Virus record (IMG/VR): IMGVR_UViG_3300010293_000008
Coordinates: 1-44,573 of that record
Direction: 5' to 3' (one strand)
DNA length: 44,573 nt
From: a virus
Lineage: Duplodnaviria > Caudoviricetes
The stretch's first letter is position 1; each line of letters begins with the position of its first letter. Shown here piece after piece: positions 1-32,872 of this stretch. Under the pieces are notes generated by a model that worked only from the letters and a program-made list of their open reading frames with translations, was not told the DNA's origin and ran no database searches. The position numbers were made by a program, and so were the translations under genes.

Positions 1-324
1 AAAGAAGAACACATTATTCGATATATCAAAATGCCACTGAGTCAGCGGTTCTTGGGAAATTTGGAAGTCGTCAACAAATATGGCGTCCGCAAGTTTCCTA
101 TGAAAAAGACGGAAATCGGTCTTTCTGGAGTTCCTCGGACACCAGAAGACGTCGCCGACACGATCATCCTCGCACTCGATTCGATCTCCACGTTCGGTCC
201 GTATGAAACCGATGCTGTCAATGCGGCCATCGATTCCGCAAAGCAGTTCAAACAACAAGAAAAGAGAAACGCTCGATACAGCGCTCTGAAAGAACATATT
301 TTCAAGATGCTTCGGGGTGTGTGA
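1..324 (+). CDS. hypothetical protein, probably 5'-truncated by the window edge
   Basis: Frame is open from base 1 to TGA at 322-324 and abuts the next gene. No motif recognised. Confidence 0.6.
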   Translation, partial: KEEHIIRYIKMPLSQRFLGNLEVVNKYGVRKFPMKKTEIGLSGVPRTPEDVADTIILALDSISTFGPYETDAVNAAIDSAKQFKQQEKRNARYSALKEHIFKMLRGV

Positions 325-325
325 C

Positions 326-1555
326 ATGATCATTTGCGGAAACAACATGGAAGAACTAAAAGTCTTCGAAGACAACACATTCGACTCAATAGTAACCGAT
401 CCGCCTTATGGCATTTCTTTCATGAACAAGAAGTGGGATTACGATGTTCCGTCAGTCGATTTCTGGAAAGAAGCACTACGCGTTTTGAAACACGGCGGAC
501 ACATCCTTGTTGCTTGCGGAACAAGAACGCAACACAGAATGGCTATCAATATCGAAGAAGCCGGATTCGAGATTCGTGATATCGTGGCTTGGGTTTATGC
601 GTCGGGATTTCCAAAGTCAAAGAACGTTGCTCTCGCAGTGGACAAAGGCGAGGGGATGCCGAACCGCGGACACAGAATTGCTGTTGCAAATCGTTTCCAT
701 CCAGACGGAACCGAAGAACCAAACGGGGAAGACTTGGAACCATACGAGGCAAAAACCAATTTAGCAAAGCCGTGGGAAGGTTGGGGAACCGCTTTGAAAC
801 CCGCGATGGAATTGTGGACGCTCGCACGAAAACCACTTGACGGTACAGTGGCTAACAACATTGTTAATTACGGCGTTGGTGGTATCAATGTCGACGGTTG
901 CCGTTTAGACGCGACCGAGCCGATTGCGGTCAATGTCGATTTTTCAGACGAACTTCAAAGCGAAGGTTGGGGAGTAAAAAAAGCCATCGTTGATAAGCAG
1001 TATGTTGGCCGATTCCCAGCAAACTTCATTCACGACAACAGCGGCGAAGTAGTTGAACTTTTGCCAAATGCTGCAAGGTTTTTCTACACGCCAAAGCCGA
1101 ACAGAAAAGAACGCGATATGGGCCTTTTTGATTTCGACGAGCAAGAGGTTCGCGGTGGCGGCGGACGTGTTGAACAAGGGTATGACGAGAACGATGAGGA
1201 ACAACAGCGTCTTCGTCGCGCGTCGGCTGCGTTCGGTGCAGTAAAGGCAAAGAGGAAAAACGTTCATCCGACAGTGAAACCAGTTGAACTTATGCGTTAC
1301 CTTGTTCGTCTGGTCACGCCAAAAGGCGGTGTTGTTCTTGATCCGTACCTTGGGAGTGGAACAACTGCAGTAGCAGCAAAGTTGGAAGGGTTCGATTGCG
1401 TCGGAATCGAATTAGAACCAGAATACGCAAAAATCGCCGAAGCCCGCGTCGGCGCTTGCGATACGAACTACGATGTAAAAGAACAAATGCTTCGCGGTGG
1501 TGCTACCGAAGTGTTTGATATCTTTGACTTTGACGTCGAAAAGACGGAGGAATAG
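326..1555 (+). CDS. DNA N6-adenine/N4-cytosine methyltransferase (beta class)
   Basis: Catalytic TDPPY near the N-terminus, then HPTVKP and SAM-binding VLDPYLGSGTT near the C-terminus. ATG 326 follows GGGGTG (ORF track starts at GTG 317). Confidence 0.93.
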   Translation: MIICGNNMEELKVFEDNTFDSIVTDPPYGISFMNKKWDYDVPSVDFWKEALRVLKHGGHILVACGTRTQHRMAINIEEAGFEIRDIVAWVYASGFPKSKNVALAVDKGEGMPNRGHRIAVANRFHPDGTEEPNGEDLEPYEAKTNLAKPWEGWGTALKPAMELWTLARKPLDGTVANNIVNYGVGGINVDGCRLDATEPIAVNVDFSDELQSEGWGVKKAIVDKQYVGRFPANFIHDNSGEVVELLPNAARFFYTPKPNRKERDMGLFDFDEQEVRGGGGRVEQGYDENDEEQQRLRRASAAFGAVKAKRKNVHPTVKPVELMRYLVRLVTPKGGVVLDPYLGSGTTAVAAKLEGFDCVGIELEPEYAKIAEARVGACDTNYDVKEQMLRGGATEVFDIFDFDVEKTEE

Positions 1556-1557: not shown

Positions 1558-1977
1558 ATGAAGTTCACTGGGGAATACAAGATTTTAGGACGCGGACTTG
1601 TATACACAATGACGATGGACGATTCTGATCCGGTTATTCATTGCGGCGATTTGATACCGCATGATGGCAAACTATACGAAGTGCGCGGTATCGAAATGTC
1701 GCGAATTATGACAGCGCCTCCGCGTCTTTCGCCGCACGTCGGCTTCGTTGTCCGTGAAGTAAAACCGACTCTTCGAATGGTATTGGAAAAGCACGCTGAC
1801 CATCCGCTTTTGCGGGTGTATACGGTCAACGCGCAACAAAAGACTGAATATATCGGCAATCCCAAAACGCGCGCAAACGCCAACGTAATCGCTCGGTATT
1901 TGGATTGCTTGGTCGACAAAGAAATCGAATACACGCGCGACAAGAACGCACGCTGCATCTATGTGGAGGTGAAATAA
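1558..1977 (+). CDS. hypothetical protein with an N-terminal EF-Tu domain II-like beta-barrel
   Basis: GGAGG RBS. ILGRGLVYT..GD..VRGIEMSR..HVGFVVR parallels EF-Tu domain II (ITGRGTVAT..GD..VTGVEMFR..NVGVLLR), aligned by eye. Confidence 0.6.
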   Translation: MKFTGEYKILGRGLVYTMTMDDSDPVIHCGDLIPHDGKLYEVRGIEMSRIMTAPPRLSPHVGFVVREVKPTLRMVLEKHADHPLLRVYTVNAQQKTEYIGNPKTRANANVIARYLDCLVDKEIEYTRDKNARCIYVEVK

Positions 1978-2234
1978 TGGACGACTATAAGAGCAACAAT
2001 GGAAGAAATCAAGCAGATTCTGGAGGTGGAAGAATGAACGGACTCGAAGCGTTATCAATGCTGAAATACGGCAAGAAAGAAAAGCCGTATGTGGAAATCA
2101 TCGAGCAAGAATTGGCAACTTTGCATTTCATTCGATCAATCTGGCTAACACCGAAAATAAGCGAGAAACAAACGGTCGAAATGATTACGGAACTACTTTT
2201 TTCGGGGAAACGGTGGATGAAAAATGAAGGGTAA
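1977..2234 (+). CDS. hypothetical protein (start at 1977 or 2034)
   Basis: Both in-frame ATGs follow GGAGGTG. Overlaps its neighbours in the operon. Confidence 0.6.
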   Translation: MDDYKSNNGRNQADSGGGRMNGLEALSMLKYGKKEKPYVEIIEQELATLHFIRSIWLTPKISEKQTVEMITELLFSGKRWMKNEG

Positions 2235-2451
2235 TATCGTCTATCAAAATCGCGAGTGTATGTTTTTTATAGACAAAAACAACTGCCTTGCGCTCGAAAT
2301 GAAAGACTGTAAGAACTGCAAGTTTTTCAGGCACAAAGTCCACACAACGCCAGAAATAGAAAAACAAAAGGTTGCATACAAAGCGGAACGCGCAAAGCAA
2401 AAGGAAGAATCAAAAGTCGTAATGCGAAACTCGTTTGAGTCTGTAAAATGA
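2224..2451 (+). CDS. small Cys-rich, putative Zn-binding protein
   Basis: Four Cys (C..CLAL..CKNCKFF). ATGA overlap with the next gene. Confidence 0.65.
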   Translation: MKGNIVYQNRECMFFIDKNNCLALEMKDCKNCKFFRHKVHTTPEIEKQKVAYKAERAKQKEESKVVMRNSFESVK

Positions 2452-3848
2452 TCTGGACAGATGACGGCTCGCTTGAACTCATAAAGAACGAGGATTCGTT
2501 CGGCATATTTTACGACATGGGCCTCGGAAAGACCGCACTTTTGCTCGGATTGATTGACCACAAGTTTTTCAACGAGAACGTCAAAAAGGTTCTGATCATT
2601 ACACCGAAAAAGGTTTCTCTCAGCACGTGGCAAAACGAAATTAAAAAGTGGGATAACTTCAATTACATGATGGACATTGTTCAGTTGATCGACAAAGGCC
2701 CAGACGAACGAATTACAAAACTTCGTGATACTGGAGAATTCTCCATACACATTATCTGTTCCGCCTTGATTCCTTGGCTTTACGGGGAATATGAAGAAAA
2801 GATATCAAAGTCCGGAAAGAAGTATAACGTGTTTCATCCAAACGTCGAACGACCAGACTATGACATGATTATTGTTGATGAATGTTCGCAGTTTAAGTCC
2901 GCAAAGTCAAACCGATTCAAGGCGCTAAAAGGCATCAACGCGTCAAAGAAAGGCGCGCCAATGAAATTGTTTTTGTTAAGTGGAACACCATTTTCAAATA
3001 TACGCTACGTCGAAGACCAATATGGCGACTATTACGTTTCGGTTGAAGAACTTTATTATCTGTTTTTCTTCCTTGGAATATACGTAAAATCTGCATACGA
3101 GTTCGAGAAAGAATTCATGTACACGACGCGCTGGGATCAATTCAAATTGCGCACAAGACCCGACATTTACAAAGCACTTGACGAAGCGCTTGAACTTCGA
3201 AGTATTCGAAGAAAACTGCAACTTTCAATAAAGAAAAACGAGTATAAAGTCTATTGCGAAATAGACCAAGAACGCATGGACATGTTGGAAGACCATTATG
3301 CTGTATTAACGGAAAACTTCCAGACCATCACCGCGGCAAACCGCGCCGTCATGATCAACAAGGCACTGCAGTTGTCGAATGGGTTTATCTACGACGAGTT
3401 CAAAAATGCTCATCGATTAAACACGTACAAAATAGACCTTTTGAAAGACATTCTTTCCGTCGTTGATGGAAACGTCGTGATTTATTACAACTTCAAAGAA
3501 GACCGCGAATTGCTGCTTTCGTCTTTTGACGGCATCAAAGAATATACGGTCGAAAATGAAGCGGAATGGAACAAGGGAAACATACCGTATCTGTTATTGT
3601 CGCCGTTTTCTGAGAAATACGGAATCAATATCCAATTCGGCGGACACACAATCATTTGGTTCGGATTGATCTGGAGTGGCGAAAGTTATCTGCAAGCGAA
3701 CGGAAGACTCTACAGACGCGGGCAATCGCACGACGTGGACATTTACTACCTTTTAGGAAAAGGGTCATACGATAATTTTGTTTATGATGTCCTCGTTTCT
3801 AAAACAAAAGCAATCGGTAGTTTCATAGATATTGTCAAAAAACACTAA
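2448..3848 (+). CDS. SNF2-family helicase
   Basis: Motif I DMGLGKT, motif II IVDECS, motif III LSGTP, motif VI QANGRLYRRGQ. Confidence 0.92.
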   Translation: MIWTDDGSLELIKNEDSFGIFYDMGLGKTALLLGLIDHKFFNENVKKVLIITPKKVSLSTWQNEIKKWDNFNYMMDIVQLIDKGPDERITKLRDTGEFSIHIICSALIPWLYGEYEEKISKSGKKYNVFHPNVERPDYDMIIVDECSQFKSAKSNRFKALKGINASKKGAPMKLFLLSGTPFSNIRYVEDQYGDYYVSVEELYYLFFFLGIYVKSAYEFEKEFMYTTRWDQFKLRTRPDIYKALDEALELRSIRRKLQLSIKKNEYKVYCEIDQERMDMLEDHYAVLTENFQTITAANRAVMINKALQLSNGFIYDEFKNAHRLNTYKIDLLKDILSVVDGNVVIYYNFKEDRELLLSSFDGIKEYTVENEAEWNKGNIPYLLLSPFSEKYGINIQFGGHTIIWFGLIWSGESYLQANGRLYRRGQSHDVDIYYLLGKGSYDNFVYDVLVSKTKAIGSFIDIVKKH

Positions 3849-5779: not shown

Positions 5780-6124
5780 ATGCAAGATGAACAAGAACTG
5801 ACCCGCGATGTAGTCGGCGAATATGTCGAACTGAAAAAGCGGATGAAGTCAGACGAAGAAAGAATGCGTGCGATTGAAACGGTCATTTTCGACAATCCGG
5901 TTATGCAGACGGACTCACGCATCAAAATCGTTCAAGGGTCCACGAAGTATCTCATCACCCAAGCGGGATACGAAAACCTCGAAGTCGTCGGCGTCAAAAC
6001 CACAATCACCGAAACGCGCCGAAAAGACTTTGACGAGTTCGACACCGAAACACAAGGTCTGCTTTTGCAGAATCCGTTGAACGTTGAATCGAAAACCTCG
6101 AAAGCGAGCATCCGCGTCAGATGA
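5780..6124 (+). CDS. hypothetical protein with N-terminal coiled coil
   Basis: AAGGGAG RBS and ATGA overlap. Confidence 0.75.
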   Translation: MQDEQELTRDVVGEYVELKKRMKSDEERMRAIETVIFDNPVMQTDSRIKIVQGSTKYLITQAGYENLEVVGVKTTITETRRKDFDEFDTETQGLLLQNPLNVESKTSKASIRVR

Positions 6125-6516
6125 ACGACACCATCAAGCGCGTGCTCTATCCGATCCAGAAACGCAACCGTTTGAACGAAGTGTACGTTCTTGACGAGCC
6201 GAACCAAACCAACGGTGCTTCGCATCGATACGGCGTCAGCATCGTTCGCGAAGAAAAGGATGGCCGCAAGTACGTCGAGTGGGTCGTCGTTCAGTTCCAA
6301 GACGGACCACGCAACGGAGCCGGAACCATTCACGGCATTCTCGATGGCGATCTGCTCGAAATGATCCGCGACAGATTCAAAGGATTCCAACAAGGCGCGT
6401 TTCCGTCCGAGGAAACCGCCAAGGCGCTCGAACACATCGATATCGCGCTCATGTATCTCAACAAGAGGGCGGAAGACCGCGCCGAACGCGGCGTCCTCGG
6501 AAAGAACAAGGTGTAA
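6121..6516 (+). CDS. tad1: Tad1-family anti-defence sponge protein
   Basis: IQKRNRLN..GASHRY..QFQDGPR..HGILDGDLLEMIRDRFKGFQQGAFPSEE..ALEHID.ALMYLNKRAEDRAERGVLG matches the Tad1 pattern as I recall it, over the full length. Confidence 0.88.
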   Translation: MNDTIKRVLYPIQKRNRLNEVYVLDEPNQTNGASHRYGVSIVREEKDGRKYVEWVVVQFQDGPRNGAGTIHGILDGDLLEMIRDRFKGFQQGAFPSEETAKALEHIDIALMYLNKRAEDRAERGVLGKNKV

Positions 6517-11971: not shown

Positions 11972-12245
11972 AAACGACGTTGAAAAAATGCTCGTCGACG
12001 CATGCGCGATTAGGGGGATTCGGTGTATTAAAGGCAAGACCGCAATCGGAACCGGATTCCCCGACCGAATCGTGTTTCATCGATTCAGAAAGAAAATCTA
12101 TTATATCGAAGTGAAAAATCAAAATTATGAACAGCAACTGGACCAAAAGGAATGGGAAAAACACATTCGCGAAAGTGGTGGTGAATTCTTCTTAATCGAC
12201 GGTCCGGTCGAAATGAAGCGGTTCATCAAGGGTTTTATCGAATGA
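11952..12245 (+). CDS. VRR-NUC domain nuclease
   Basis: E..VE, GFPDRI, YIEVK, Q..W motifs. Confidence 0.85.
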   Translation: MPRPKIENDVEKMLVDACAIRGIRCIKGKTAIGTGFPDRIVFHRFRKKIYYIEVKNQNYEQQLDQKEWEKHIRESGGEFFLIDGPVEMKRFIKGFIE

Positions 12246-13276
12246 GCGATAGATACGGAATTGTCTACCTTGGTAGCAAAGAAAAGATTCTTGACCTTAT
12301 CAAATACATATTCGAACGCGAATACAAGCAGAAAAACTTCATTGACCTTTTCTGCGGCGGTCTTTCCGTTTCAAGTTTCGCGTTACAGAAAACAAAGTTT
12401 AACGTGTATGCGAATGACTTGAACCATTTTGTCATCGCGCTTTACAAGGAACTTCTGAATGGCGGACACGAGTTCAAAGAAGTTCAGTACGACTGGATCA
12501 GCCGCGAACAATTTAACAACGTTCGCGACTTTCCGGAAATGTTTCCGGATTGGTATGTCGGTTACGTCTTGAACGTTTGGTCGTTCGGGTGTAATCAAAA
12601 GGACTACCTCTACGCAAAAGACATCGAGTATCACAAGATGGCGCTCCACGAGGCTATCGTCAACAACGACTTCAAGCACATGAACGGGTGCGTTGAATTC
12701 GACGGATTCATTCCAAATGAACGCGTGACGCAAATGAATTATAGAATCAATCCAAGGAAGCGCATTGACTTTATGGCCCACTTCAAGCAACTGAAGAACA
12801 CGGTTGCCACCGAGGCAAGAGCGCAACACCTTGAACGTTTGGAGCAACTTGAAAGCCTTTCGCAAATGGAACACCTTTCGGCAATCAAGAAGAATTCATC
12901 GTACAAGAGTCGCTTGACGTTAAGCGCTCTGGATTGGGAAGAATGCTACAACGGAATACCGACTGACGTGTTGGAACAATCGTTCATTTACTGCGACCCA
13001 CCTTATCAAGACGCGAAAAAGTATCTCATGGGCGGCAACTTTGATTACGATCGGTTTTGGCAATGGTTTCGTGATTGTCCATATTCCGTGTACGTATCGT
13101 CCTACAAGGCGCCGGAAGACATCAAGCCACTTAACTTCGGTCTGAAAGCCCAACTGCTTGACAACGGCAAGCGCGGCGACAACAAGCCAAAGAAAGTGGT
13201 GCAAGAAAACATCTATTGGAACGGCAAAGGAACCGCCGAACCGATGATGATCGATATCCTATTTGGAGGGGAATGA
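12242..13276 (+). CDS. Dam-like (D12 class, alpha) DNA adenine methyltransferase
   Basis: YLGSK, FIDLFCGGLSV, YANDLN, IYCDPPY. Confidence 0.9.
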   Translation: MSDRYGIVYLGSKEKILDLIKYIFEREYKQKNFIDLFCGGLSVSSFALQKTKFNVYANDLNHFVIALYKELLNGGHEFKEVQYDWISREQFNNVRDFPEMFPDWYVGYVLNVWSFGCNQKDYLYAKDIEYHKMALHEAIVNNDFKHMNGCVEFDGFIPNERVTQMNYRINPRKRIDFMAHFKQLKNTVATEARAQHLERLEQLESLSQMEHLSAIKKNSSYKSRLTLSALDWEECYNGIPTDVLEQSFIYCDPPYQDAKKYLMGGNFDYDRFWQWFRDCPYSVYVSSYKAPEDIKPLNFGLKAQLLDNGKRGDNKPKKVVQENIYWNGKGTAEPMMIDILFGGE

Positions 13277-14162: not shown

Positions 14163-14176
14163 CGTCCACTTTTTTT
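14150..14176. terminator. bidirectional intrinsic terminator where the two arms converge
   Basis: AAAAGTGGAC-TGAC-GTCCACTTTTTTT between the convergent stop codons. Confidence 0.85.
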
Positions 14177-17100
14177 ATTCGGCGTATCTTAATGCTTGAG
14201 CCACCACGTCGGATTCGTACTTTGGTTCTTTTGTAAGATACTCCATGTTTGCGTTAAGTTGCTTCCTCATATCGTTGTTGCCGCGCGAAGCATAATATGC
14301 GACAGACTTGAGTTTCATGAAATTGTAGTAATAATTGATCACGCGTTGGACGGCCTTTAAGCGTTCTTTCGGCACGAGGTTCCGGTATTCGCCGGACGTG
14401 ACCAAACGTGCAAGGGCGCGCTGCGATTGGGCATTGTATCGGTTATAAACGCTGTCTTTGATTTTGTAGTCGACGTATTCGCCGTCTTTGTTTTTCATCC
14501 GGAAGTTCTTGTCAACACGCATGCTTAACGACGCGTCCGGAACGTTCGTGAGCAGATTGACAAGTTCTCGCTTCACGGAATTGTTCGAGAAATACTCGTT
14601 CGCATAATACGCGATTTCTTTTTCGTTTCCGCGTTTGATCGCTGCGCTTAATCCTTGCTGTACCTTTTGTGACTTGAAGAAATTATTCGATTCAACGAAG
14701 AAGTCAACGCCTTGCTTACTGAGAATGAACGAAAGCGTCGACGCCATTCTGACTGCGTTTTTGATCGGTGCGCCGATGATCATTCCGGCACTCTCGATGA
14801 TGCGAAGAACTTTTCTGCCGATATTCTCGCCGGTGTACATGGTAGACAACGTTGACGCAATAGTTTCCAGTTCTTTCGAACCGGCAATTACCGGCAAGAA
14901 CCCAGTAGAACGAATTCCGGTTTCCTTGTCGAATTCAATCATGTTAGTAAAGGCATTCACGATCGGGATCGCGCCGACAATGTTACCCCACAAGAACTCG
15001 TTGACCGTGAGGTCGAACAAGTCAATTCTTTCTTCGTTTCCACGAATGATTTGGAAAACACCATTGACAAGCGCCGTGAACAGTCCGGAAAACAGAAACG
15101 CAAGGAAATCGCGACGACCGTAATACTTTGCCCGTTTGGCACCATTCTTCGCCATTGTTCGATTTCGAATGAGCGCACTTACTTGAAGAACGTTTTCAGA
15201 TTGGAACTTGGTAAGCATCTTCATCGCGTATTCACGGGCATTCAAGATATGGGCGCGGAACGCTGCGTCGGTATTTGCGACACCGTATAGAAGAACTTCT
15301 TTGAACAATTCGTTTGCTTTCTGGAACACTTCTGTTTCGGTCATCGGAACAGTTGCTGTTCTTTCAACTTCTTGACAGATACTCATGAACGCGCCGACGA
15401 GAACGGCATTATCGAACCAACCGACCGACGCCGAAAGTTTCCTTGTCAGTTTAATAATTGCTTCTTCTGAACCTTTTAATACGCTGGCCGGAATGGCATC
15501 AACTAAGTTCGGAATGTTCCCCGATTTTGCGCGGTGATAGAAGTTCTCGTTGTTTTCCATCAACCATTCTCGGTATTTATTGTTTGTTGCCAAGGCGATG
15601 GCGACGTTCTTCATCATATCGCCAAAGTTTACATTGTTTTTCAGCGCAATCGTCGATACGGACGCCAACTGTTTTATCGTCGACGGGATATTCAAGGCCA
15701 TCGTAGCGGCAACCGTGTTTCGAAGCACCTTGCGGAACGTCTTGCTTACTTTCGACTCGTTCAAGTCACTGAATTGAAGAACGTTCATGAACATGCGCTC
15801 GATCATGTCGGCGATGTTGTTCTCAACACCAAATATACTGTTGCTTCCGCTCAATATGCCGGTTCCAAATGTCAACCCACCGGAACTGTTCACGAGTAGA
15901 TTTTGCCAGTCTGAAATAACACGTTCGAAACTGTAGTTTGCCGACATTCTTGTTGCGTTTTCAACAACACCGAATATGTTTTCAATCCGGAGCGCTCCGG
16001 TCGCACCAAGTGTCGTAGCGGTCGCCAACGAGTTTGGAGCGCCAACATTGCTTCGATTAACCACTTTCAGTTCAAGTTCGCGGTCGTAACTACCGTTAAT
16101 GGTAGAAAATGGAATGTATGTGCTTTGACGCGGCAAGTCCTCTTGATACTTTGCCGAAAAAATCGTATTTGCATGCACGTAGTTTACATCGAATCTGGCC
16201 CGCGCAAAGTCAATGATTTCAAGATCTTCTGCTTCAAGAAGTGTGGAAAGATAGTCCAAAACTTTTTGTCTATCTTCGGCGAACAAAGTAAAATGTTTTG
16301 CGTTTTTCTTGGCGTAATCGTATCCCTTATTGCGCATATCTTCGTCACTGAAGACGTGGAATTGATTGCCGAAAGAAAAGTGTTCTGTCGGCTGGATATT
16401 GTATCCGGTTCCGTTCGCAACCATTTTGTGCATTTCAATTTCGCGTGCGATCGAAAGGTACAAGGAAATAATCTCACCACGCGACATGCTCTGGTCTGCT
16501 TTTCCGGATGCCGCATACTTGATGAGTGCGTCTTGAATTTCTTTCGTTTTATTGAATCCTTTTAACTTGTCAGAAGCCGCACGCTTTTGCTGACGAAGCA
16601 TACTGCGTTCGTTCAAAAGCGGTTTCACTTGGGCTTGAAGCAACTTGATCATGTTCTCAATAATGCGATATTGCGGATCGCTTTGCGGAAGTTTTGCGAG
16701 TTCATTTCGACGCTTCTGAATTTCGCCGTAAAGTACAGAAAGTTGCCGCTTCAGTTCGTTCAAACGTGGATCGTTCGCTTTTTTATCGTTTCTGAGTTTT
16801 TCTTGTTCGTCATTGATATTTTTTACAAGCAACGAATAAGCGACTTCGTTAATTTGAATGGCGACATTATAGGCAATATCGATCCGCTCAAGTGACCTTT
16901 TTTGGTAATCGGTATCGCTTTTCAGAAACTGCTCGTATGCCTTCTCAAAGTTCATCATCAAGTTTCCGCGCATTTCTGCCGCTTTTCGATACTCGCGGAA
17001 GAAATCGTCAAAGAACGACATCTTTGCATTTTTGCCTTTGCCAAAAACCTCGATATAAGCGAGGAAGAAATCTTGTGGATTGACGGCCTTGAACAGTTTT

Positions 17101-20100
17101 CCCATGAAATTTCCGTCGAACTTTTCGCCGCTTCCAAGAATCGCGACGCCTTGTTTGTTGGTCATTTCAGCGTATTCGTCAAGCGTCATGTTGTCATTGA
17201 ATGTGCTCGTGTATTTCTTCTCAAACGCTATGATAATACGCGACAATGCACTCGCAAGCGTCTTTTCATTGAAAAGCAATTTGACATACTGAAGTTCCGG
17301 TCTTGCTTTTCCAAACGGCGTCAACAAGATACCTCGGTCTTCAAAAAGCGCAGCGAATTGGGAGTATATGGTTACGAAGTCAGATTCAACCTTATCTTTT
17401 ACATCGTCTGGAAGTTTTTTTGATAAAGTAACTACTTGTCTGATTTCGTCGACAATTCGAACGACTTGATCCGCAATTCGCGTTTTTGTTCCGCCGATTA
17501 CCGACACTTTCGCACTAAACGGATTGTTCTCAATCGTTTTAGCGAGTTGTTCGATAAGTTCGTAAACATGAAGCATATCTTGATTCATTGGCGCTTGGGA
17601 GGCGCGGTTTGACTGCGACTTTCCACCACGGGAATTTACCGCAACACGGCTGACCGCATTTGAAACGCGTGTCCGAATAGTCAAGACGAGGTTTTTAATC
17701 ATTGTTTCGCGTGCTTTTTTCTGAACTTGAAGCAACTTGAAATTAAGATTCCCGCCTTTGCTGAGATCTTTTTTAATCTCGTTTAGAACATCATTTTTCT
17801 TTTTGAAATCGATCATAAGCGTCGTCAAAAGTGCAAGATTGTTCGTCATTGCATAATGAGCAGCGTTGTTTACAAGACCCCTATTATAGAGGTCGTGTGC
17901 AATGTAAATGTCTGTTTGAAGTTGGAAATACGCGTCCATTTGTGGTTGCGTCATGTTTGCTGTATCTTGCGTGTAAATGTCAATGATTCTGTCAAGTTCG
18001 GCAATGATGGAAGAAACGTCATTTACCATCGAATTGTACTTCGGCATTCCAAACAACGTGATAACGTCGGAGTTAATATCGGCATAAACGTCGATAAATT
18101 CCGAGAACATTTCACGAAGGTCTTCATAGAAATCAATGGAAACAATAGCGGTACCCGCGACGATCTCGTTGTGTAAAGTTTTGTGCATACTGAGCATATC
18201 TTGATAAAGATCGAACATGGTGCCTTTGTACTTGAATGTTCCAAAATCAAACACACGTCGTTCGTAAAGAATCAGCGCTTGGTCCGGATGTTCAATCAGT
18301 AAAAGCATGCCGCGTTTGAACGTTTCGAATTCTTCTTGAATGTTCTTGTATAAAGCCGCTGCGCTTTGAACGGTCTTCGAAAGCAACGAGGACACATAGA
18401 TGATATTATCGATCGCGATCGTCGCCGGACCACGCTTTTTATTCGACTGTTCCTTTTGATATTCGTTCAGCAACTGACCGCGGGTGGTGAATTGACCGTC
18501 CGTAAATTCGTTCAAGAAGTCATTCAATTCCTTGAGTGTATATTTTTCCTTGGACGGGAATTTTTTCTTCAAGATTTCCATGTGTTTCTTCATGATATCC
18601 GAATAGATTGTTTTTGCTTTTTCAATCAAACGGCGGGTGGTTGCATCTGTTTTTCCAGAATGAATGATTTGTTCGAATATCTCGTAGTAGGAAAAGAACG
18701 TCGACGAACTGCCATGCAACGTTTTTTCGAACACATCTTTCGACGACATCAACTTACCAACCATCTGCGCCATGACTTCGTTCATGTAGTCGTTAAGTTC
18801 TTGATCCGTATGGTTTGTTGAAACTTGTTTCATTGCTTGATACAACTTTTCAAGCGTGTTGATTTTAGAAAAGTTCTTGTTAACACTACCGTATCCGGCT
18901 TTGAGATATTCCAAAAAGTTATTATAACGATTTCGTCCGCTATAGAGATTATCAAAAGCGCTATACACCGCGGTCGGAACTATTTTACCTTGCGCATCCT
19001 TTTCGAACAAAACGTCAGCAAGATTTCCGGCCATGTAGAGAATCATGTTTGGACTTGTTTTGAACGCCTCGTGGAATGTTTCATGAATTGCCACTTCGAC
19101 CATTCTCTGAATTTCAATTCCATTGTGGAAGTAAGACATGTCAATAAATACAACCGGCGTTTCGTTTCCGCCAAAGAAAGGCGGATTCGGGAGCGAAATG
19201 GAATATCCAATCGCATCGGAAGCCTTTTTGCTCTTGTAAAGAATGAACGATATATCAGAAGTAGAAAGAACGTCAAAGAACAAACGTTCATTTGGCGTCA
19301 TTTCCGAAAGTAACATCGGACGTTCGTACTCGTGAAATCCATGAAAATTATTAATCGTTGTATCAACAACGTCGACTGCCGTGTGAACCGCGTAGTCTTT
19401 CGAAGAGTAAACTTTGATTCCGGACGATTGGGTAAGAACCTTTACTTGATCGCGGACCTTGTTCGAATTGACGACACGTTCGTTCTTGAGAACAAGATTG
19501 CCTTTGCTATCCAACTTGAAAAAATCCTTTGCGAATTCAAGGTTTCCTTCGCCGAGAACACCTTTCACAAGTTTCTCGTCTTTTGCAGACAAGTCATACG
19601 TTTTCGCTACGCGCTTAACGGTGATATCACGGCTTCCGTATTCCATGTACATGCTTCCGGAACCGGTGCTGATCCGTCGCTGCGCGACTTGCTGCGTTTC
19701 TTCTCGCGTTGCTTCTTGATTAAACAAAAACACATCAGCCCTAAAACCGGCCTTGTAAAAAGCCATCGCTGAAGAAACACTGGAAACTTGCGCACTTATA
19801 GAGCCTTTCGTAACCAACTTTACGGCCTCAATAAGCGCGGTTCCGATCCCGTGCTTTCTTGCTTTTTCATTCACATACAACTCAGTAATCGAATTGTCAG
19901 CCGGCGTATACGGGCTGTTTATCCACACCTCAACAACTCCGTTGTCTGTTTCGATTCGAATGCTTTCAATCTTGTTGTCGTCAATTTCTCTTGTTTCGAA
20001 TTTGACGCCAGTAATGTATTCGCCGACTTTTCGAAGGCCCTTTTCGATAACCTTTACAATCTTTTGTTCTTTTAGAGCGATTTCCAAAAGATAGTTAGAG

Positions 20101-23100
20101 GCAGAACCCGTAACGTCATTGTTGTCATATACGACATTTCTTTGGTCATTCAACTTGCTTTCGAATCCGATAATTTCTTTATATGCCATCATTTGCTGGG
20201 CAGAAGGACTCAAATTAAATTCCGTTTCGGACTCATACGGATATTCGCTGATTGGTCTGAATTTACGCATTAAAATCTTTGCTTCAAAAGGTATTTCAAT
20301 CGCAAGATGTTTTTTCGACTTTCCGACAAATTCGTATCCGGAATTGATTCTTTCGCTTGTTTCAAGGTGATGAACGGTTGTTATATAAAGTTTATATCCA
20401 TCCGTTTCGTTGAAAGTAGATAGCGGGATCATCGGGCCAACGTGCCAAGAACCAGATTCTTCAACGCCAACCCTAAACAAGAAAGTATTTTCATCTCCGA
20501 CGTTGTTTACAAAAAGTTGTTCCGCCGCTTTTCGAATCGACGATTTAACCTCGTTTATATATTCCCCAACAATAGCAAGAGCCTTTTCGTCATATTCGAG
20601 AAAGTCGTATTGATGTATCGTGGCGTTCGGTTTTTCAAAAAACTTCGCGATATCTTGTCTTGTTGTTTTTGTTCTGTCGCGATATTCTTGTTCCACCTTC
20701 GAATTTAGTTCTCTGATTTCTGCATTCAATTTTTCGAAGAATTCCGCGGTGTCTTGTGGATTCGTTTTTGTTCTTTCGCGGTATTCTTTCATCTCTTGCA
20801 TGTAATAAACGTCATCCATATTCATACGCTTCGTTGTAACCGGATGAATGGTCGGGCGAACGTTGTCGACAGACTTCAGTTGATTCGCATTAAACACAAT
20901 ATACGAAATAACCGGTTCGTTACTGTCCGGTTTTCCTTTGACCAGATCTTTTTCAATGCCTTCAACCACAACAATCGTGTCATATCCTTTTGATTTCAAT
21001 ACTTTCAGATCTTGTTCCGAATTGAAGAATGTTCCTTCCTCAAGCGTCATTTGATGGTAAAATTCAGCAAGCGACGAGAACCCGTTATATTTCGCATAGA
21101 CTTGAACGTCAGAAAGGCCCTTGGTTGAACCTTTTTCTTCCGCTTCAAGTTCGGCGCGTTGGTTATCGAATTCTTCTTTATTTGCACCTTTTTCCATCGT
21201 TTCTTCGAAATAACGCTTGATAATGTTTTCAAGTTCTTGACCTTGGTACATCGAAGAAGCGCCGAACGGATGGACGATCGACTTTTTCGATTTGAGATAC
21301 ATTTTCATCGTGACACCGTTTTTTCCGGACTCTTCAATGTCTTTGAACCGTTCGCTAAAAGCACGATTCGGCGTAACGAAGAATCCGAGTTCGGTTCCAC
21401 TAAAACCGGTGTTTGATCCAAGCGCTTTCGAAGAAAATTCATCAAAAATGATATTCGATGAATGATACATGACCGCGACTTTTCCGTCCTTGTCACGAAC
21501 CGCTTCTTTTCCGAGGTAATCCAGTTGTTCGGCAGAGAATTCGTTTCCTTCACTATCATATACCTTTGTGTTTCGCAACGCCGTGTTTGCGACCGTTCCG
21601 ATAGAGGATTCGACTTCTTCATACGCTTCAACAAGATCGGCGACGTTGAAACCCTCGCGTAAGTTTTGACCAACTTTTGCAAGATACTCAAAGTCGATTT
21701 TTTCCAAGTTTTCCATGACGCGCTGGTGTTCGCCTTGCGTCATCAAGTCTGGCGAAACGCGAACAAGAATGTATTTTTCTGTCGGCTTCAGTTCGCTTAT
21801 ATCATGATATACCTTGTTGAAGTCGGCTCCATTCCCTTGACTACGAACGGCAAAATCGAACTTCCAGTCCGTCATCTTTTGGTATCTTTCGGCAATGCCG
21901 ACCAAAGAACGGGTTTCAAAGTCCGGATGCTTATCTTTTCGTTCGCTGAACTGACGCATATTTTTGAATGGTGTGTTTAATTTAGAGGTATCTTTCGCCC
22001 AAATCTGAAGAGCAACTTTGATCGGCTGGTACTTTGCACCCATTTTGAATGACTGCATTCCGATCGGCTCACTGTGAATAAGCGTCGTGTTTTCGTCGAC
22101 CTTTTTGTGGTTTTCAAACGACTTATGCCACGTGATAGGAACAATGACCGCGACGTATGGAGCGACTTGCAACGAACGATTAACAAACTCGGAAACATTA
22201 TCAAAAGACGGAATCCCCATAACGATTCCATTTTCGTCGTAATTCTCATGATTTCTTCCAAAAAAGGTTATTTCACCAGCAAAATCATAGAAATCTGCTT
22301 GATTTTCGAACGGTTTTACGTTCGTATAGCCAACAGATTCGAGCATTTTTAGAAAGTCATTTTGCGAAGAATTCGGGTTTATTACATTCAGTTGCGTGAC
22401 ATCAATACCATTCTCAACAAGAACTTCTGAAATTCGTTCAATGCTTCCGCGAACAATTTCTTCCATGCTCTTGTTAAGTTCAGCACCTTTTCGTTCTGCC
22501 GATCGTCTTTCTTTCGCTTCGGCGTTCGCGAGTTTTTCTTTCTGAAGTTCAGCGTCTTCTTTTAACGTTCTTTCGACAAATTCATCCGTCGGATAAACAA
22601 CATACTGGGCGCTCTTGCCATTGTTGACAATTCCGGCGGCCGTTTCAAAGATGTTCGGATATCTGATTTCGAGATAAGCATTGATGTAACCCAAGGTCGC
22701 AGCCATTTCAGTTTCGGATTCGGAAGGATTATCGAATTCCTTGACCAAAACAGCACCACCGTCAGCCGATCGCGCCTTATTAGTCCATTTAACGTCGTTC
22801 TTGTGGTCACGAATCTGCGTGTCTTCGTTCAAGTGCTTCACAATCATTTGAACGGCGTTTCGAATCACGCGCATTTCGTCCGTTTCAACGAATTCGTTTT
22901 CACGGCGTTTGTCCTCGTATACTTCTTCGGTCAAGGCAATGATTTCGGCCAAAAGATCGATATCTTCTTTCGAAAGTTCTTCGCTTATGATAATGCGAGC
23001 CTTTTTCTCGCCTTCTTCATTTTTCTGGTCGCGAACAAGGATATCGTCCATCAAATCTTCGATATTGTTTGCCGCTTTGTATCTCGCACGGTTTTCCTTT

Positions 23101-25820
23101 ATTTCAGCAATCCATCTTTTTTTCTTGGCGATTTCGCCGGACTTCGCGGCCTTGATCTTTTCCTCAAGGATATTGTTTGTTTCAACGAGCGACGTCACAT
23201 AGTCTTTGATAAGACGCATGTAGTGTTTCTTTTGCGACGGGTCATAGACAAACTTCGAAACTGCTTCATCAATCTGCTTTTGGCTCAGACGATTAATGCT
23301 TATTTCCGGCTTTTCGATTTCGTCAATAATCTCTTGATTCACATACTCGCGTAACGTGAACGTTTCGCCGTCGATCACAATATCCGATGAATTTTCGCCG
23401 GCTTCTTCCATCGCCTTGAAAAGTTTTGCAAGTCCAAAACGCTCGACAAGTTCCGGATTGAAGAACTTCGATAGGCTAAATTCTTTTCCGAGAAAGTCGC
23501 CAACAACGTAACCCAAGGTCATTTCGATTTCTGCCGTCTTTTTGATTTGTGCAGCAAATGTTTTGTCAAGTTTGTTTAGTTTTTTGTAAAGTCGAGAATC
23601 GTTTCCGGCTATCTTCTTCAGCATTTCGCTTCCGAACACCTTTTCTCGAAGCACGTCAACAAGTTTTGATTTTGTTCTTGAAATAGCACGCAAGAATGGA
23701 CCACCTTCGAATACGTTCTCCATGAAGTAAGCGACGACCTCTTCATCTACGAGTTCGGCGGTTTGTTTTGCGTCATTGTTTGTTTGTTTCAAGTAGTCGA
23801 TTAAAGAAGCGCGAATCTGATCCTCGAAGCCGCTTTCTTTCAAGTATTCGCCAAGCGCTTTGTTTGTGTAATTGAACACCGGAAGACCGGACTTTGCATC
23901 AAACGAAACTGAAACAAGGTCATTTACACCTTGTCTTATTTCTTGATATTCTTTCGGGCTTTTCTTCGATAATTTATGCACGGCCTCGTGACGCGCCAAA
24001 GTATCACGGATTTGTGTATTCGTCATACCAGAAACAGCATTTTGATTAAAATATAAAATGTTGCTTTTTTTACCGTAGAATCCCGACGTCGCTTGATCGC
24101 CATCAACTACAGCAACCGGAACGTTCATGTCTTCCGCAATCTTCAAGAGGCGTTGACCGTCCTTGTTCAAGTCAGAACGTTTTACCACATTTCGAACACC
24201 GCGTTCGCTGATGTCGACACCGCGCGTACTCGTATTGACGGCATACTCACCTTTGTTGATGGCCTTTCTTGTAAGTTTACCGTCAGCACTTCTTTCCATG
24301 ACATAGTTATCGAACATCGTCTTGTCGATTTTCTTCGCTGCTTCGGTTGTTTCGAATCGCTGAGTTTGTTCATTGTAGTGAACATACGTATCCAAACGAG
24401 TGTTTTGCAAAAACGATTTCTTTTCGTCGAGTGTGAGTTCGCCGGTGAATGTTCCGCCTTTTTCATTGACTTTGGTTCCTTTGGTTCTTTCGTCGTTCAA
24501 GCGCTCCACAAGGCTGTTTAATTCCTTGTGCATACGCGCTACAGTCGCTTGCTCACCGTTCTTTTCGACGGACATATCAAACGTCTTTCCAAAGCGTTCT
24601 GCCGCGTTTTCGACTGTTCCGTTCAAATACATCATATTTCCGGCGCCAAGGCCAGCGGACGCAAACGCGCCGCCAAGGAAAGCGAATAATGCGCGTTTAG
24701 TGAATTCGCCACTCCCAATCGCCGGCGCATCGATCTTTCGATCCGGATTAGACCACATTTCAAAACTGGTAGTTCCATACTCGGCCGCAAGTTCTTCTAT
24801 ACCCTCGTCACGAGCGTTTTTCATAATCTTGGTAAACGTAGATGTATTCGCGAGTTTTTGTGGCGTGTTTCCACCAAGGTTCTCGATTGCGGTTTCGATA
24901 AACGCACTCGCAATCGCGTAGGTATAAGCGTCTTGCAATGTCGATCCATTCACAACGGCGCGAGAATACGAATCGCCAAAAACATTCGCAAAAAAATACG
25001 ATTGCGAAACAGCGCTGACCGCTTGAGGACTCAAACCGGCTTTTGCACCGGCTTTGGCCATGTACCGCGCCGCCAAGATTGCTCCAATACTATTTACCGC
25101 ACTTGATAAACCTTGATACAATTCACTATTTCCGAATTGCTTGTCGGCAAGTTCAACAGAAACCTCGCTTTTGAATCCGTATGTTTTGCTGTTGTAAGCG
25201 GTTTTCAAAACCTTTTCTGCTTGCGAAGAAAAGTGTTCCTTGAACCTCGAACCACCAATCAGTTCGGCACGAATATCTTCGTAGTATCTGTCGTCGATTG
25301 CATTTCGAATCGAATCAAGATCCTGGCCCTTCATACCGAGCATATCGCCGCGCGCTTGCGTGAATTGGTCGTCTGCTTGCTGGGCTACGCCGTCTTTACC
25401 AAACGCCCATTCCGGATCAATACCAACTATTCGGCCAAGGTTGCCGGCTGTCGAAATCCCGAATTGAGCAACGCCCTCACCTACAGACATGAAAAAACTT
25501 CCGATTGCATAATTTATTTCAGCGTTCGGGTCTTGACCGTTCTTTGATGCATCACCAATCCTACGGATATCATTGCGAAGATTATTAGCAATCACGCCAA
25601 TGGAAAAAGCGGCATTGATTGCTGATTGCACGGCACCGTTCACAAGTTCGTAAATGAATTTGATCGGAAGAGAAACGACGCCCAAAAGCGTCTTTTTCGG
25701 ATTCACGACAGAATTCACATATTCTTCATATCTGCGAGAACCCGCTTTGTATGCTTCAATCGCTTGCGAATAAGCCTTTTCGTAGATCTGCTGTCTTGTA
25801 AGTCCTACGACTTCTGCCAT
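14175..25820 (-). CDS. giant (3881 aa) polyvalent internal virion/ejection protein: two HExxH peptidases, degenerate MTase, two ADP-ribosyltransferase-like domains, GNAT
   Basis: HEAVH..EEVVA; HETFH..NEVMA; ART-PolyVal-like YHSS..GFFVT..GYDTI..YIVFNANQLKS; LFRVG..PLSTF..ESETEF; GNAT RKHGIGTALI..FYKAGF. Last gene of the virion arm. Confidence 0.85.
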   Translation of the reverse strand: MAEVVGLTRQQIYEKAYSQAIEAYKAGSRRYEEYVNSVVNPKKTLLGVVSLPIKFIYELVNGAVQSAINAAFSIGVIANNLRNDIRRIGDASKNGQDPNAEINYAIGSFFMSVGEGVAQFGISTAGNLGRIVGIDPEWAFGKDGVAQQADDQFTQARGDMLGMKGQDLDSIRNAIDDRYYEDIRAELIGGSRFKEHFSSQAEKVLKTAYNSKTYGFKSEVSVELADKQFGNSELYQGLSSAVNSIGAILAARYMAKAGAKAGLSPQAVSAVSQSYFFANVFGDSYSRAVVNGSTLQDAYTYAIASAFIETAIENLGGNTPQKLANTSTFTKIMKNARDEGIEELAAEYGTTSFEMWSNPDRKIDAPAIGSGEFTKRALFAFLGGAFASAGLGAGNMMYLNGTVENAAERFGKTFDMSVEKNGEQATVARMHKELNSLVERLNDERTKGTKVNEKGGTFTGELTLDEKKSFLQNTRLDTYVHYNEQTQRFETTEAAKKIDKTMFDNYVMERSADGKLTRKAINKGEYAVNTSTRGVDISERGVRNVVKRSDLNKDGQRLLKIAEDMNVPVAVVDGDQATSGFYGKKSNILYFNQNAVSGMTNTQIRDTLARHEAVHKLSKKSPKEYQEIRQGVNDLVSVSFDAKSGLPVFNYTNKALGEYLKESGFEDQIRASLIDYLKQTNNDAKQTAELVDEEVVAYFMENVFEGGPFLRAISRTKSKLVDVLREKVFGSEMLKKIAGNDSRLYKKLNKLDKTFAAQIKKTAEIEMTLGYVVGDFLGKEFSLSKFFNPELVERFGLAKLFKAMEEAGENSSDIVIDGETFTLREYVNQEIIDEIEKPEISINRLSQKQIDEAVSKFVYDPSQKKHYMRLIKDYVTSLVETNNILEEKIKAAKSGEIAKKKRWIAEIKENRARYKAANNIEDLMDDILVRDQKNEEGEKKARIIISEELSKEDIDLLAEIIALTEEVYEDKRRENEFVETDEMRVIRNAVQMIVKHLNEDTQIRDHKNDVKWTNKARSADGGAVLVKEFDNPSESETEMAATLGYINAYLEIRYPNIFETAAGIVNNGKSAQYVVYPTDEFVERTLKEDAELQKEKLANAEAKERRSAERKGAELNKSMEEIVRGSIERISEVLVENGIDVTQLNVINPNSSQNDFLKMLESVGYTNVKPFENQADFYDFAGEITFFGRNHENYDENGIVMGIPSFDNVSEFVNRSLQVAPYVAVIVPITWHKSFENHKKVDENTTLIHSEPIGMQSFKMGAKYQPIKVALQIWAKDTSKLNTPFKNMRQFSERKDKHPDFETRSLVGIAERYQKMTDWKFDFAVRSQGNGADFNKVYHDISELKPTEKYILVRVSPDLMTQGEHQRVMENLEKIDFEYLAKVGQNLREGFNVADLVEAYEEVESSIGTVANTALRNTKVYDSEGNEFSAEQLDYLGKEAVRDKDGKVAVMYHSSNIIFDEFSSKALGSNTGFSGTELGFFVTPNRAFSERFKDIEESGKNGVTMKMYLKSKKSIVHPFGASSMYQGQELENIIKRYFEETMEKGANKEEFDNQRAELEAEEKGSTKGLSDVQVYAKYNGFSSLAEFYHQMTLEEGTFFNSEQDLKVLKSKGYDTIVVVEGIEKDLVKGKPDSNEPVISYIVFNANQLKSVDNVRPTIHPVTTKRMNMDDVYYMQEMKEYRERTKTNPQDTAEFFEKLNAEIRELNSKVEQEYRDRTKTTRQDIAKFFEKPNATIHQYDFLEYDEKALAIVGEYINEVKSSIRKAAEQLFVNNVGDENTFLFRVGVEESGSWHVGPMIPLSTFNETDGYKLYITTVHHLETSERINSGYEFVGKSKKHLAIEIPFEAKILMRKFRPISEYPYESETEFNLSPSAQQMMAYKEIIGFESKLNDQRNVVYDNNDVTGSASNYLLEIALKEQKIVKVIEKGLRKVGEYITGVKFETREIDDNKIESIRIETDNGVVEVWINSPYTPADNSITELYVNEKARKHGIGTALIEAVKLVTKGSISAQVSSVSSAMAFYKAGFRADVFLFNQEATREETQQVAQRRISTGSGSMYMEYGSRDITVKRVAKTYDLSAKDEKLVKGVLGEGNLEFAKDFFKLDSKGNLVLKNERVVNSNKVRDQVKVLTQSSGIKVYSSKDYAVHTAVDVVDTTINNFHGFHEYERPMLLSEMTPNERLFFDVLSTSDISFILYKSKKASDAIGYSISLPNPPFFGGNETPVVFIDMSYFHNGIEIQRMVEVAIHETFHEAFKTSPNMILYMAGNLADVLFEKDAQGKIVPTAVYSAFDNLYSGRNRYNNFLEYLKAGYGSVNKNFSKINTLEKLYQAMKQVSTNHTDQELNDYMNEVMAQMVGKLMSSKDVFEKTLHGSSSTFFSYYEIFEQIIHSGKTDATTRRLIEKAKTIYSDIMKKHMEILKKKFPSKEKYTLKELNDFLNEFTDGQFTTRGQLLNEYQKEQSNKKRGPATIAIDNIIYVSSLLSKTVQSAAALYKNIQEEFETFKRGMLLLIEHPDQALILYERRVFDFGTFKYKGTMFDLYQDMLSMHKTLHNEIVAGTAIVSIDFYEDLREMFSEFIDVYADINSDVITLFGMPKYNSMVNDVSSIIAELDRIIDIYTQDTANMTQPQMDAYFQLQTDIYIAHDLYNRGLVNNAAHYAMTNNLALLTTLMIDFKKKNDVLNEIKKDLSKGGNLNFKLLQVQKKARETMIKNLVLTIRTRVSNAVSRVAVNSRGGKSQSNRASQAPMNQDMLHVYELIEQLAKTIENNPFSAKVSVIGGTKTRIADQVVRIVDEIRQVVTLSKKLPDDVKDKVESDFVTIYSQFAALFEDRGILLTPFGKARPELQYVKLLFNEKTLASALSRIIIAFEKKYTSTFNDNMTLDEYAEMTNKQGVAILGSGEKFDGNFMGKLFKAVNPQDFFLAYIEVFGKGKNAKMSFFDDFFREYRKAAEMRGNLMMNFEKAYEQFLKSDTDYQKRSLERIDIAYNVAIQINEVAYSLLVKNINDEQEKLRNDKKANDPRLNELKRQLSVLYGEIQKRRNELAKLPQSDPQYRIIENMIKLLQAQVKPLLNERSMLRQQKRAASDKLKGFNKTKEIQDALIKYAASGKADQSMSRGEIISLYLSIAREIEMHKMVANGTGYNIQPTEHFSFGNQFHVFSDEDMRNKGYDYAKKNAKHFTLFAEDRQKVLDYLSTLLEAEDLEIIDFARARFDVNYVHANTIFSAKYQEDLPRQSTYIPFSTINGSYDRELELKVVNRSNVGAPNSLATATTLGATGALRIENIFGVVENATRMSANYSFERVISDWQNLLVNSSGGLTFGTGILSGSNSIFGVENNIADMIERMFMNVLQFSDLNESKVSKTFRKVLRNTVAATMALNIPSTIKQLASVSTIALKNNVNFGDMMKNVAIALATNNKYREWLMENNENFYHRAKSGNIPNLVDAIPASVLKGSEEAIIKLTRKLSASVGWFDNAVLVGAFMSICQEVERTATVPMTETEVFQKANELFKEVLLYGVANTDAAFRAHILNAREYAMKMLTKFQSENVLQVSALIRNRTMAKNGAKRAKYYGRRDFLAFLFSGLFTALVNGVFQIIRGNEERIDLFDLTVNEFLWGNIVGAIPIVNAFTNMIEFDKETGIRSTGFLPVIAGSKELETIASTLSTMYTGENIGRKVLRIIESAGMIIGAPIKNAVRMASTLSFILSKQGVDFFVESNNFFKSQKVQQGLSAAIKRGNEKEIAYYANEYFSNNSVKRELVNLLTNVPDASLSMRVDKNFRMKNKDGEYVDYKIKDSVYNRYNAQSQRALARLVTSGEYRNLVPKERLKAVQRVINYYYNFMKLKSVAYYASRGNNDMRKQLNANMEYLTKEPKYESDVVAQALRYAE
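20620..20790 (-). repeat. degenerate tandem duplication within the giant protein
   Basis: EYRERTKTNPQDTAEFFEKLNA and EYRDRTKTTRQDIAKFFEKPNA. Confidence 0.8.
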
Positions 25821-27197: not shown

Positions 27198-27230
27198 AAC
27201 TTACCTCCAGCGTTGCTATTATTATACAAT

Positions 27231-27269
27231 AAAAGCCGAACTTTTGAAACGGAGTTCGGCGTTTTTTTT
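27231..27269. terminator. intrinsic terminator after the membrane-protein cluster
   Basis: AAAA-GCCGAACT...AGTTCGGC-GTTTTTTTTT. A minus-strand TATAAT lies at 27221-27226. Confidence 0.75.
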
Positions 27270-29673: not shown

Positions 29674-29683
29674 AATTTCCTCC

Positions 29684-29968
29684 CTATTTATATTGCACGC
29701 TCTTTTTGAAAATGATTTTATGTATTAGAATCGCCAATGGAAATGTTACCAATTTTTCTGGTGTAAACGGCATCCAAAGTATAGTGAGATACGCCGTTCC
29801 AACCCACTTCGCCCAAGCGATATCGAACTGAATGCCGATCCAAAAAGCAATGTACGCCCACCCATTCGTAATCATCCACGCAATAGCAAAAACCAAAAAC
29901 GCAGATGGGCGAAGGAATGGGCGTACTTTTCGATTGATCGCTTTGCAAAATTGATTAAACTTCTTCAA
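29684..29968 (-). CDS. small membrane protein, holin-like size
   Basis: 94 aa, basic termini, hydrophobic Trp-rich core. Confidence 0.7.
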   Translation of the reverse strand: MKKFNQFCKAINRKVRPFLRPSAFLVFAIAWMITNGWAYIAFWIGIQFDIAWAKWVGTAYLTILWMPFTPEKLVTFPLAILIHKIIFKKSVQYK

Positions 29969-30368: not shown

Positions 30369-30376
30369 GATATCAC

Positions 30377-31033: not shown

Positions 31034-31052
31034 AAGGCGTTACCTCCGTCAA

Positions 31053-32306: not shown

Positions 32307-32316
32307 TTCTTATTCC

Positions 32317-32862: not shown

Positions 32863-32872
32863 ATTTCCTCCA

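Follow-up and report, generated by a model that had tools for sequence, protein, structure and literature searches.

Does the small gene at positions 1558 to 1977 of this viral DNA encode a piece of the translation factor EF-Tu, and if so, what might a phage use it for? The stretch analysed (hereafter the window), 44,573 bases long, comprises an entire virus record with an estimated completeness of 82%. A first-pass annotation, made from the letters alone, had described the 139-residue product as a mini EF-Tu domain II. The four domain II motif blocks that it quoted are all present in the ORF, and, in keeping with its claim that a GTPase domain is missing, the G domain and domain III are both absent from the 139 residues. 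The relevant features of the window are the following.

317–1555, plus strand: N6/N4 DNA methyltransferase, upstream neighbour (PF01555, E 1.3e-34)
1546–1550, plus strand: Shine-Dalgarno GGAGG, 7 nt 5' of the ATG, read from the sequence
1558–1977, plus strand: the ORF, mini EF-Tu domain II plus a small phage domain, 139 aa
1558–1764, plus strand: truncated EF-Tu domain II barrel, residues 1–69, equivalent to E. coli EF-Tu ~212–282 (mature numbering)
1582–1602, plus strand: I-x-G-R-G-x-V, residues 9–15, the a2-b2 turn (EF-Tu I220–V226), from the family alignment
1693–1695, plus strand: Glu46, equivalent to EF-Tu Glu259, from the family alignment (excerpts of PMC9540759 and PMC9071432)
1717–1722, plus strand: Pro54-Pro55, a family-specific signature in the hairpin after Glu46, from the family alignment
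1765–1974, plus strand: unrelated small domain, residues 70–139, not in most family members
2448–3848, plus strand: SNF2-type helicase, downstream (library matches)
6121–6516, plus strand: homologue of Tad1 (Thoeris anti-defence 1; PDB 8KBE, E 2.9e-25), ~4 kb downstream in the same gene run

The stop codon of the methyltransferase gene (1553–1555) lies between the GGAGG and the ATG of the ORF, with two bases separating stop and ORF. The left part of the window, on the plus strand, carries DNA methyltransferases, the SNF2 helicase, a Sak-like annealing protein, an exonuclease and a primase-helicase, and the right part, on the minus strand, carries the terminase and tail-like genes. The ORF sits in the replication and accessory run, well away from the morphogenesis genes, which occupy the opposite strand. 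The Tad1 homologue falls in PHROG 2428, which is annotated as of unknown function.

Several other features of this phage deserve mention. Two distinct DNA methyltransferases are encoded in its 44 kb, both on the plus strand (317–1555, PF01555, and 12242–13276, PF02086). A 3881-aa ORF on the minus strand (14175–25820) has only a weak acetyltransferase PHROG match over residues 1967–2028 (E 1e-4) and possibly encodes a giant virion or ejection protein; a helicase-related phage (L004) has a 2450-aa ORF after its helicase, in a similar position. Among the 17 scanned morphogenesis-strand ORFs at 25836–42153 (minus strand), only one matches a PHROG at E 0.001 (tail-fibre-like). Since capsid, portal and tail genes could not be assigned, the phage represents a divergent lineage.

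Homology to EF-Tu domain II

Taken alone, the ORF bears only a suggestive likeness to EF-Tu. BLASTP aligned it with E. coli EF-Tu at 27% over 67 aa (E 0.01), precisely on domain II. Its score was equalled by 13 of 5000 shuffles against domain II and by 106 of 5000 against whole EF-Tu, and one of the 1092 six-frame stretches of the window, an unrelated one of 68 aa, outscores the ORF against EF-Tu. Searches of Pfam (including PF03144), of NCBIfam and, with the single sequence, of the PDB gave no match to the ORF, and the sole match in PHROGs was one unnamed family (E 0.029).

At the level of the family, the homology is clear. An exhaustive phmmer search with the ORF across 1.84 billion representatives returned, besides the ORF, 22 proteins with E-values of 0.001 or less, from which two repetitive artefacts were removed. 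All 20 remaining relatives align to residues 1–72 of the ORF only and 17 of them are 52–89 aa long, which indicates that the N-terminal domain is the family unit and the C-terminal half a local fusion. On these matches, residues 1–69 belong to a small, unnamed family of mostly stand-alone proteins. We built a profile, A1, from the ORF domain and 17 short relatives (18 sequences), leaving EF-Tu out. A1 matched 77 PDB sequences with a best E-value of 2.4e-9, and EF-Tu/EF-1A made up 59 of the best 60 of these 77 matches, all on domain II. It scored 34.5 bits on E. coli EF-Tu, against 4.0 bits with its columns reversed and at most 6.4 bits in 100 column shuffles; 18 complete EF-Tu domain II stretches scored 24–41 bits and EF-G about zero. 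A reciprocal profile, built from 16 EF-Tu domain II sequences, recovered all 27 rows of the family alignment at single-sequence E-values from 8e-12 to 0.013 (7.5e-4 for the ORF). Individually, 5 of the 18 members matched NCBIfam EF-Tu models (best E 1.9e-5). With tblastn alone, the member P0017 reaches EF-Tu (E about 1e-3), and it is the only one of 22 proteins scanned to match PF03144, at 18 bits (E 0.004) against a gathering cut-off of 30.3 bits. Taken together, the PDB matches, the controls and the reciprocal profile uphold the earlier proposal of a mini domain II and confirm that the domain genuinely derives from EF-Tu domain II and stands on its own.

The predicted structure agrees with this. 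Using the A1 alignment, AlphaFold2 returned an all-beta model (pLDDT 95), and Foldseek of this model against the PDB gave 44 rows, all of them translational GTPases or complexes that contain one, apart from two phage neck proteins. The translation-factor beta-barrel that the first-pass annotation had named as the fold to look for was borne out, at TM 0.60–0.72 in the top ten and with weak E-values, none of which reached 0.001. An Atlas model of the domain matched SelB barrels at TM 0.67–0.68 and head-tail adaptor barrels at TM 0.63–0.67; the fold alone does not discriminate between kinds of barrel, but the sequence profile does. The adaptor barrels, the weak single-sequence match and the lack of a Foldseek match at E 0.001 would suit a chance likeness of a generic small beta-barrel, for example one like the head-tail adaptors, that does not descend from EF-Tu. 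However, we consider this extremely improbable and largely refuted by the A1 profile (E 2.4e-9, with EF-Tu/EF-1A as 59 of the best 60 PDB matches), by shuffled and reversed controls that stay at or below 6.4 bits against 34.5, and by the reciprocal profile, which reached 27 of 27 members at E 0.013 or lower, 8e-12 at best. The head-tail adaptor families PF05521, PF05354 and PF10665 gave only sub-threshold PF05354 matches (best E 0.001), seen in three of the 22 proteins, and the gene is located among replication and accessory genes, outside the head-tail operon.

In a tree of 43 rows, the family splits from EF-Tu and two bacterial-type proteins, P0029 and P0030, on a long branch (1.86 changes per column, support 100/100), and its median end branches measure 0.31 changes per column; the family is a distinct, old clade. 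P0029 and P0030 are likewise free-standing domain II proteins and the best A1 scorers outside the family (42–44 bits). They differ from it in their length of 128–134 aa, with an N-terminal extension and a complete barrel, and in being 49–54% identical to E. coli EF-Tu; they pass PF03144 and group with EF-Tu, not with the phage family. Both carry a short hydrophobic-basic N-terminal motif.

The C-terminal 70 aa of the ORF found no relative among the phmmer matches; P0002, a close homologue on another contig, is of equal length and has the same two-part build. Residues 69–139 show no similarity to EF-Tu or to its domain III, 2954 and 3276 of 5000 shuffles scoring equally high, and their predicted fold resembles unnamed phage proteins of 108–143 aa (TM 0.75–0.79). 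The EF-Tu-like domain is joined to differing unrelated partners in P0001, P0005 and Mycobacterium phage Phabba gp276. It had been suggested that the ORF ends in an unrelated domain of ~70 aa; this half is indeed unrelated to EF-Tu, but it is a local fusion, most relatives being too short to hold it, and likely an incidental one.

Residues kept, lost and gained

To describe conservation, 27 family rows were compared with 16 EF-Tu sequences in mature E. coli EF-Tu numbering; three of the 27 rows were found by patterns requiring E and P, and three pairs are near-copies. The family starts at the equivalent of EF-Tu 212, most members having no N-terminal tail. In the a2-b2 turn, G222 and G224 are kept in 26 of 26 rows, R223 in 23, and I220 and V226 in 21 each; T225 (4/26) and T228 (12/26) are poorly kept. 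Glu259 is present in all 27 rows, and the F218 position holds F, Y or H in 21 of 25 (F 12, H 5, Y 4). Further kept residues are G239 (25/27), G257 (22/27), L264 (23/27), G275 (25/27) and R279 (20/27), and poorly kept ones are M260 (6/27), F261 (5/27), R262 (9/27), D266 (8/27) and N273 (4/27). Many of the kept positions hold glycines or core residues, which folding by itself would be enough to preserve. At the F218, E259 and R262 positions, the ORF itself reads Y, E and R. Conservation of both GRG and GIEM.R in homologues had been proposed as a test, and it holds in part: G-R-G and G-I-E are kept, M260 and R262 are not, and the EMFR segment retains only Glu259.

The family alignment ends at about EF-Tu 282, and the last strand and R288 are absent; the R288 position is a gap in 22 of 27 rows and R in one, within an unrelated tail. 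The c-d hairpin is four to five residues shorter than in EF-Tu, and new prolines occupy positions 267 (27/27) and 268 (25/27), the first of which is proline in none of the 16 EF-Tu sequences. The ORF domain is charge-neutral, with 9 K+R and 9 D+E.

In EF-Tu, this face meets several partners. Excerpts of two papers describe contacts of domain II with the tRNA ends through E259 and R288 (PMC9540759), with F218, E259 and R262 contacting the 3' acceptor and R288 the 5' phosphate (PMC9071432). According to the same excerpt of PMC9071432, the tRNase CdiA-CT EC869 docks on F218, E259 and R262 of EF-Tu and needs them. According to part of PMC5737660, CdiA-CT NC101 binds domain 2 only, its contacts being E259, F261, R262 and D266 in mature numbering, and the a2-b2 turn shifts together with the tRNA 3' end and relocates on decoding. 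A portion of PMC12851939 places the binding of Cas12a3 on the tRNA region that EF-Tu also occupies, and free tRNA is its proposed cleavage target. Because tRNA ends, toxins and possibly the ribosome share one face, conservation alone cannot choose among them. We take I220 and V226 to line the A76 adenine pocket, and the a2-b2 turn presumably touches 16S rRNA; EF-Ts docks on EF-Tu domains I and III, which makes it an ill-suited partner for the co-folding suggested in the first-pass annotation.

Judged by its residues, the family retains the A76 side of the site and loses the 5'-end side and much of the amino-acid side. Specificity for aminoacylated tRNA appears unlikely, because both the aminoacyl-pocket side and Arg288, which contacts the 5' phosphate, are eroded or missing. 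A stand-alone, domain-II-like barrel with a Glu259 equivalent is also found in Pbp11 of Thermococcales (PDB 7ANU; NF041207), an archaeal, cellular protein that, according to an excerpt of PMC9540759, keeps both E259 and R288, shifts tRNA in gels, loses binding without its disordered N-terminal tail and binds the PAN proteasome ATPase. In contrast, Arg288 is missing from the phage family, and so, in most members, is the tail; NF041207 was matched by one of the 18 members (E 0.076) and not by the ORF.

The reading that we favour, though tentatively, is that the family protein is a GTP-independent binder of tRNA CCA ends that would cap tRNAs or hand them on and so aid phage translation. The kept E259 and turn, the stand-alone precedent of Pbp11 and the adjacency to tRNA genes in two contigs (see below) speak for it, and the poorly kept R262, F261, T228 and N273 and the absent R288 speak against it. 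Affinity for tRNA may be very low, as the domain has no tail, no R288 and neutral charge and Pbp11 needs its tail. Host tRNA and EF-Tu are very abundant, which would make stoichiometric capping costly.

The conserved turn could instead point to the ribosome, where G-R-G would seat the protein in the domain II site of the 30S shoulder and host translation would be slowed or redirected. No stretch is better kept than G222-R223-G224, the turn changes place on decoding (part of PMC5737660), and one member adjoins a phage tmRNA. However, ribosome affinity should be low without a G domain, and A1 scores EF-G at about zero and EF-Tu at 24–41 bits, even though EF-G domain II also meets the ribosome. 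The invariant Glu259 points to the tRNA-end face, and the open-access literature gave no paper on a contact of R223 with 16S rRNA. We regard this role as quite improbable.

Occurrence and gene neighbourhoods

Scanning viral contigs for the motifs added six that hold a member (L008, L010, L014, L020, L050 and L094), bringing the family to seven viral contigs including the window. The six range from 32% to 61% G+C and include one P22-like phage, and purine-rich ribosome-binding sites were found in the four member loci checked besides the window. The L050 copy (5934–6204, minus strand), near terminase genes of the P22-like phage, has a frameshift after the G-R-G turn, which reflects either an assembly error or a pseudogene. 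A pattern scan of 185,579 prokaryote genomes produced 28 matches and no true member, with a pattern that fits 16 of the 27 known members. The top viral Foldseek match (E 0.01) led to Phabba gp276, a 158-aa hypothetical protein (L100 6018–6494) with an EF-Tu-domain-II-like barrel at its C-terminal end. It keeps the G-R-G turn and the G-D and G-I-E blocks, is without the Pro-Pro hairpin, reaches a profile E-value of 4.9e-6 in that genome and is a looser relative in a cultured phage (on M. smegmatis).

Two of the seven member contigs carry tRNA genes, and on both the family gene adjoins them on the same strand. On the 128.9-kb contig G007 (L014), it lies 151 bp after the tRNA-Arg of a cluster of tRNA-Arg/Phe/Met and tmRNA, and the third gene downstream encodes Ro60/TROVE. 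On the 70.8-kb contig G035, it lies 682 bp from the single tRNA gene, tRNA-Asp, with an RNA ligase 5 kb away. The fraction of the contig that is as near to a tRNA is 1.4% and 2.6%, respectively, a post hoc figure with n = 2, and in any case phage tRNA arrays are where small accessory genes tend to cluster. Our search found no tRNA gene in the window or in four other member contigs, which are fragments (G009 was scanned over 7.4 of its 13.7 kb). The G007 locus (L014 3602–8088) combines Ro60/TROVE with a complete tmRNA and three tRNAs; its 12 kb gave no Y RNA at the Rfam cut-off.

On L010, the third gene downstream encodes Tad3 (E 1.7e-19), and on L008 and L020, the family gene follows a GIY-YIG-type ORF and precedes a DprA/SLOG-like ORF. 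Phabba gp276 has PRPP- and nicotinate-transferase genes 3–5 genes before it, which we take to resemble NAD-reconstitution anti-defence, and a polynucleotide kinase nine genes upstream. The neighbourhoods lean to tRNA genes and anti-defence genes. They hold no fixed partner gene, so the family protein acts alone or on a host component. Small Cys-rich ORFs lie 3' of the family gene in the window (2224–2451) and on L010 (6102–6323) and are similar by eye.

The anti-defence neighbours, namely Tad1 in the window, Tad3 on L010 and the transferase genes near Phabba gp276, would also fit a protein decoy whose domain II docking face soaks up a host defence toxin or sensor in a complex that is unproductive without domains I and III. 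It is on the face kept by the family that tRNase toxins dock: EC869 needs F218, E259 and R262 (excerpt of PMC9071432), where the ORF has Y, E and R, and NC101 binds domain 2 only (part of PMC5737660). A core that never varies and rim residues that do are in line with an arms race. However, CDI toxins are inter-bacterial weapons, the NC101 contacts F261, R262 and D266 vary across the family (kept in 5, 9 and 8 of 27 rows), and the EF-Tu that a decoy has to outcompete is very abundant. Among small phage genes, moreover, anti-defence genes are common, and the neighbours vary by locus. We know of no anti-phage system that docks on EF-Tu domain II; Lit acts on EF-Tu domain I and Doc on domain III. 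A decoy role seems to us rather unlikely.

The barrel may also have been exapted, descending from EF-Tu domain II and now serving an unrelated role through its new Pro-Pro surface, with EF-Tu-like residues kept for folding. This would account for the long branch that separates the family from EF-Tu and the bacterial stand-alone domains (1.86 changes per column, 100/100), for an invariant proline that is not EF-Tu-like, for the differing fusion partners in P0001, P0005 and Phabba gp276, and for the frameshifted L050 copy; head-tail adaptors have the same barrel shape. The preservation of a surface Glu and a turn Arg across deep divergence argues against it, as do the adjacency to tRNA genes in both tRNA-bearing contigs and the position of the window gene in the replication and accessory run, far from the morphogenesis genes. 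Exaptation is, in our view, unlikely.

Proposed role and meaning

If the family protein is a tRNA CCA-end binder, as we favour, its kept patch would bind A76/CCA of tRNA irrespective of charging state, and the Pro-Pro hairpin might replace the affinity lost with domains I and III or recruit a partner. Such capping of tRNA ends could help to maintain phage translation when host defences attack the ends, and the benefit may lie in protection from 3'-end-attacking effectors or in support of tRNA repair and supply. Covering this region of tRNA could protect it, because Cas12a3 binds the region that EF-Tu binds (portion of PMC12851939).

With EF-Tu domain II (PF03144), the family shares sequence homology, the barrel fold, the G-R-G turn, Glu259, G239, G257, G275 and R279. 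It differs in being phage-encoded, about 70 aa long and without the G domain, domain III, the last strand and Arg288, as well as in its shorter c-d hairpin, variable F261/R262, Pro-Pro at 267–268 and scores below the Pfam cut-off. Tad1, Tad3 and phage tRNAs have no sequence relation to it, but they are likewise small accessory genes of the same gene runs, and the family may follow a similar counter-defence logic. The first-pass annotation knew of no described phage system like this one, and we likewise found no paper on such a phage family in the open-access literature, searched apart from supplements; outside phages, however, a stand-alone domain II is known in Pbp11 (excerpt of PMC9540759). 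New is the truncated, phage-associated EF-Tu domain II clade with its own signature; stand-alone domain II proteins as such are known.

It is conceivable, if doubtful, that unrelated phages repeatedly acquired a 70-residue miniature of the EF-Tu tRNA-end face as a new class of anti-defence protein, which either caps CCA ends or traps EF-Tu-docking effectors. If this is true, the miniature may point to undescribed anti-phage systems that read EF-Tu domain II. Bacterial toxins and anti-phage effectors often strike EF-Tu or the 3' ends of tRNAs, and the responses that we know from phages are extra tRNAs, repair enzymes or direct inhibitors. A phage protein consisting only of the EF-Tu tRNA-end face would be a different counter-measure, mimicry of a core translation factor; to our knowledge, no phage anti-defence mimic or sponge mimics an elongation-factor domain. 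The family is invisible to Pfam and NCBIfam cut-offs and to PHROGs, and one invariant Glu and one turn are its sharp features. If the family binds CCA ends, it would also reveal the minimal part of EF-Tu that is able to do so.
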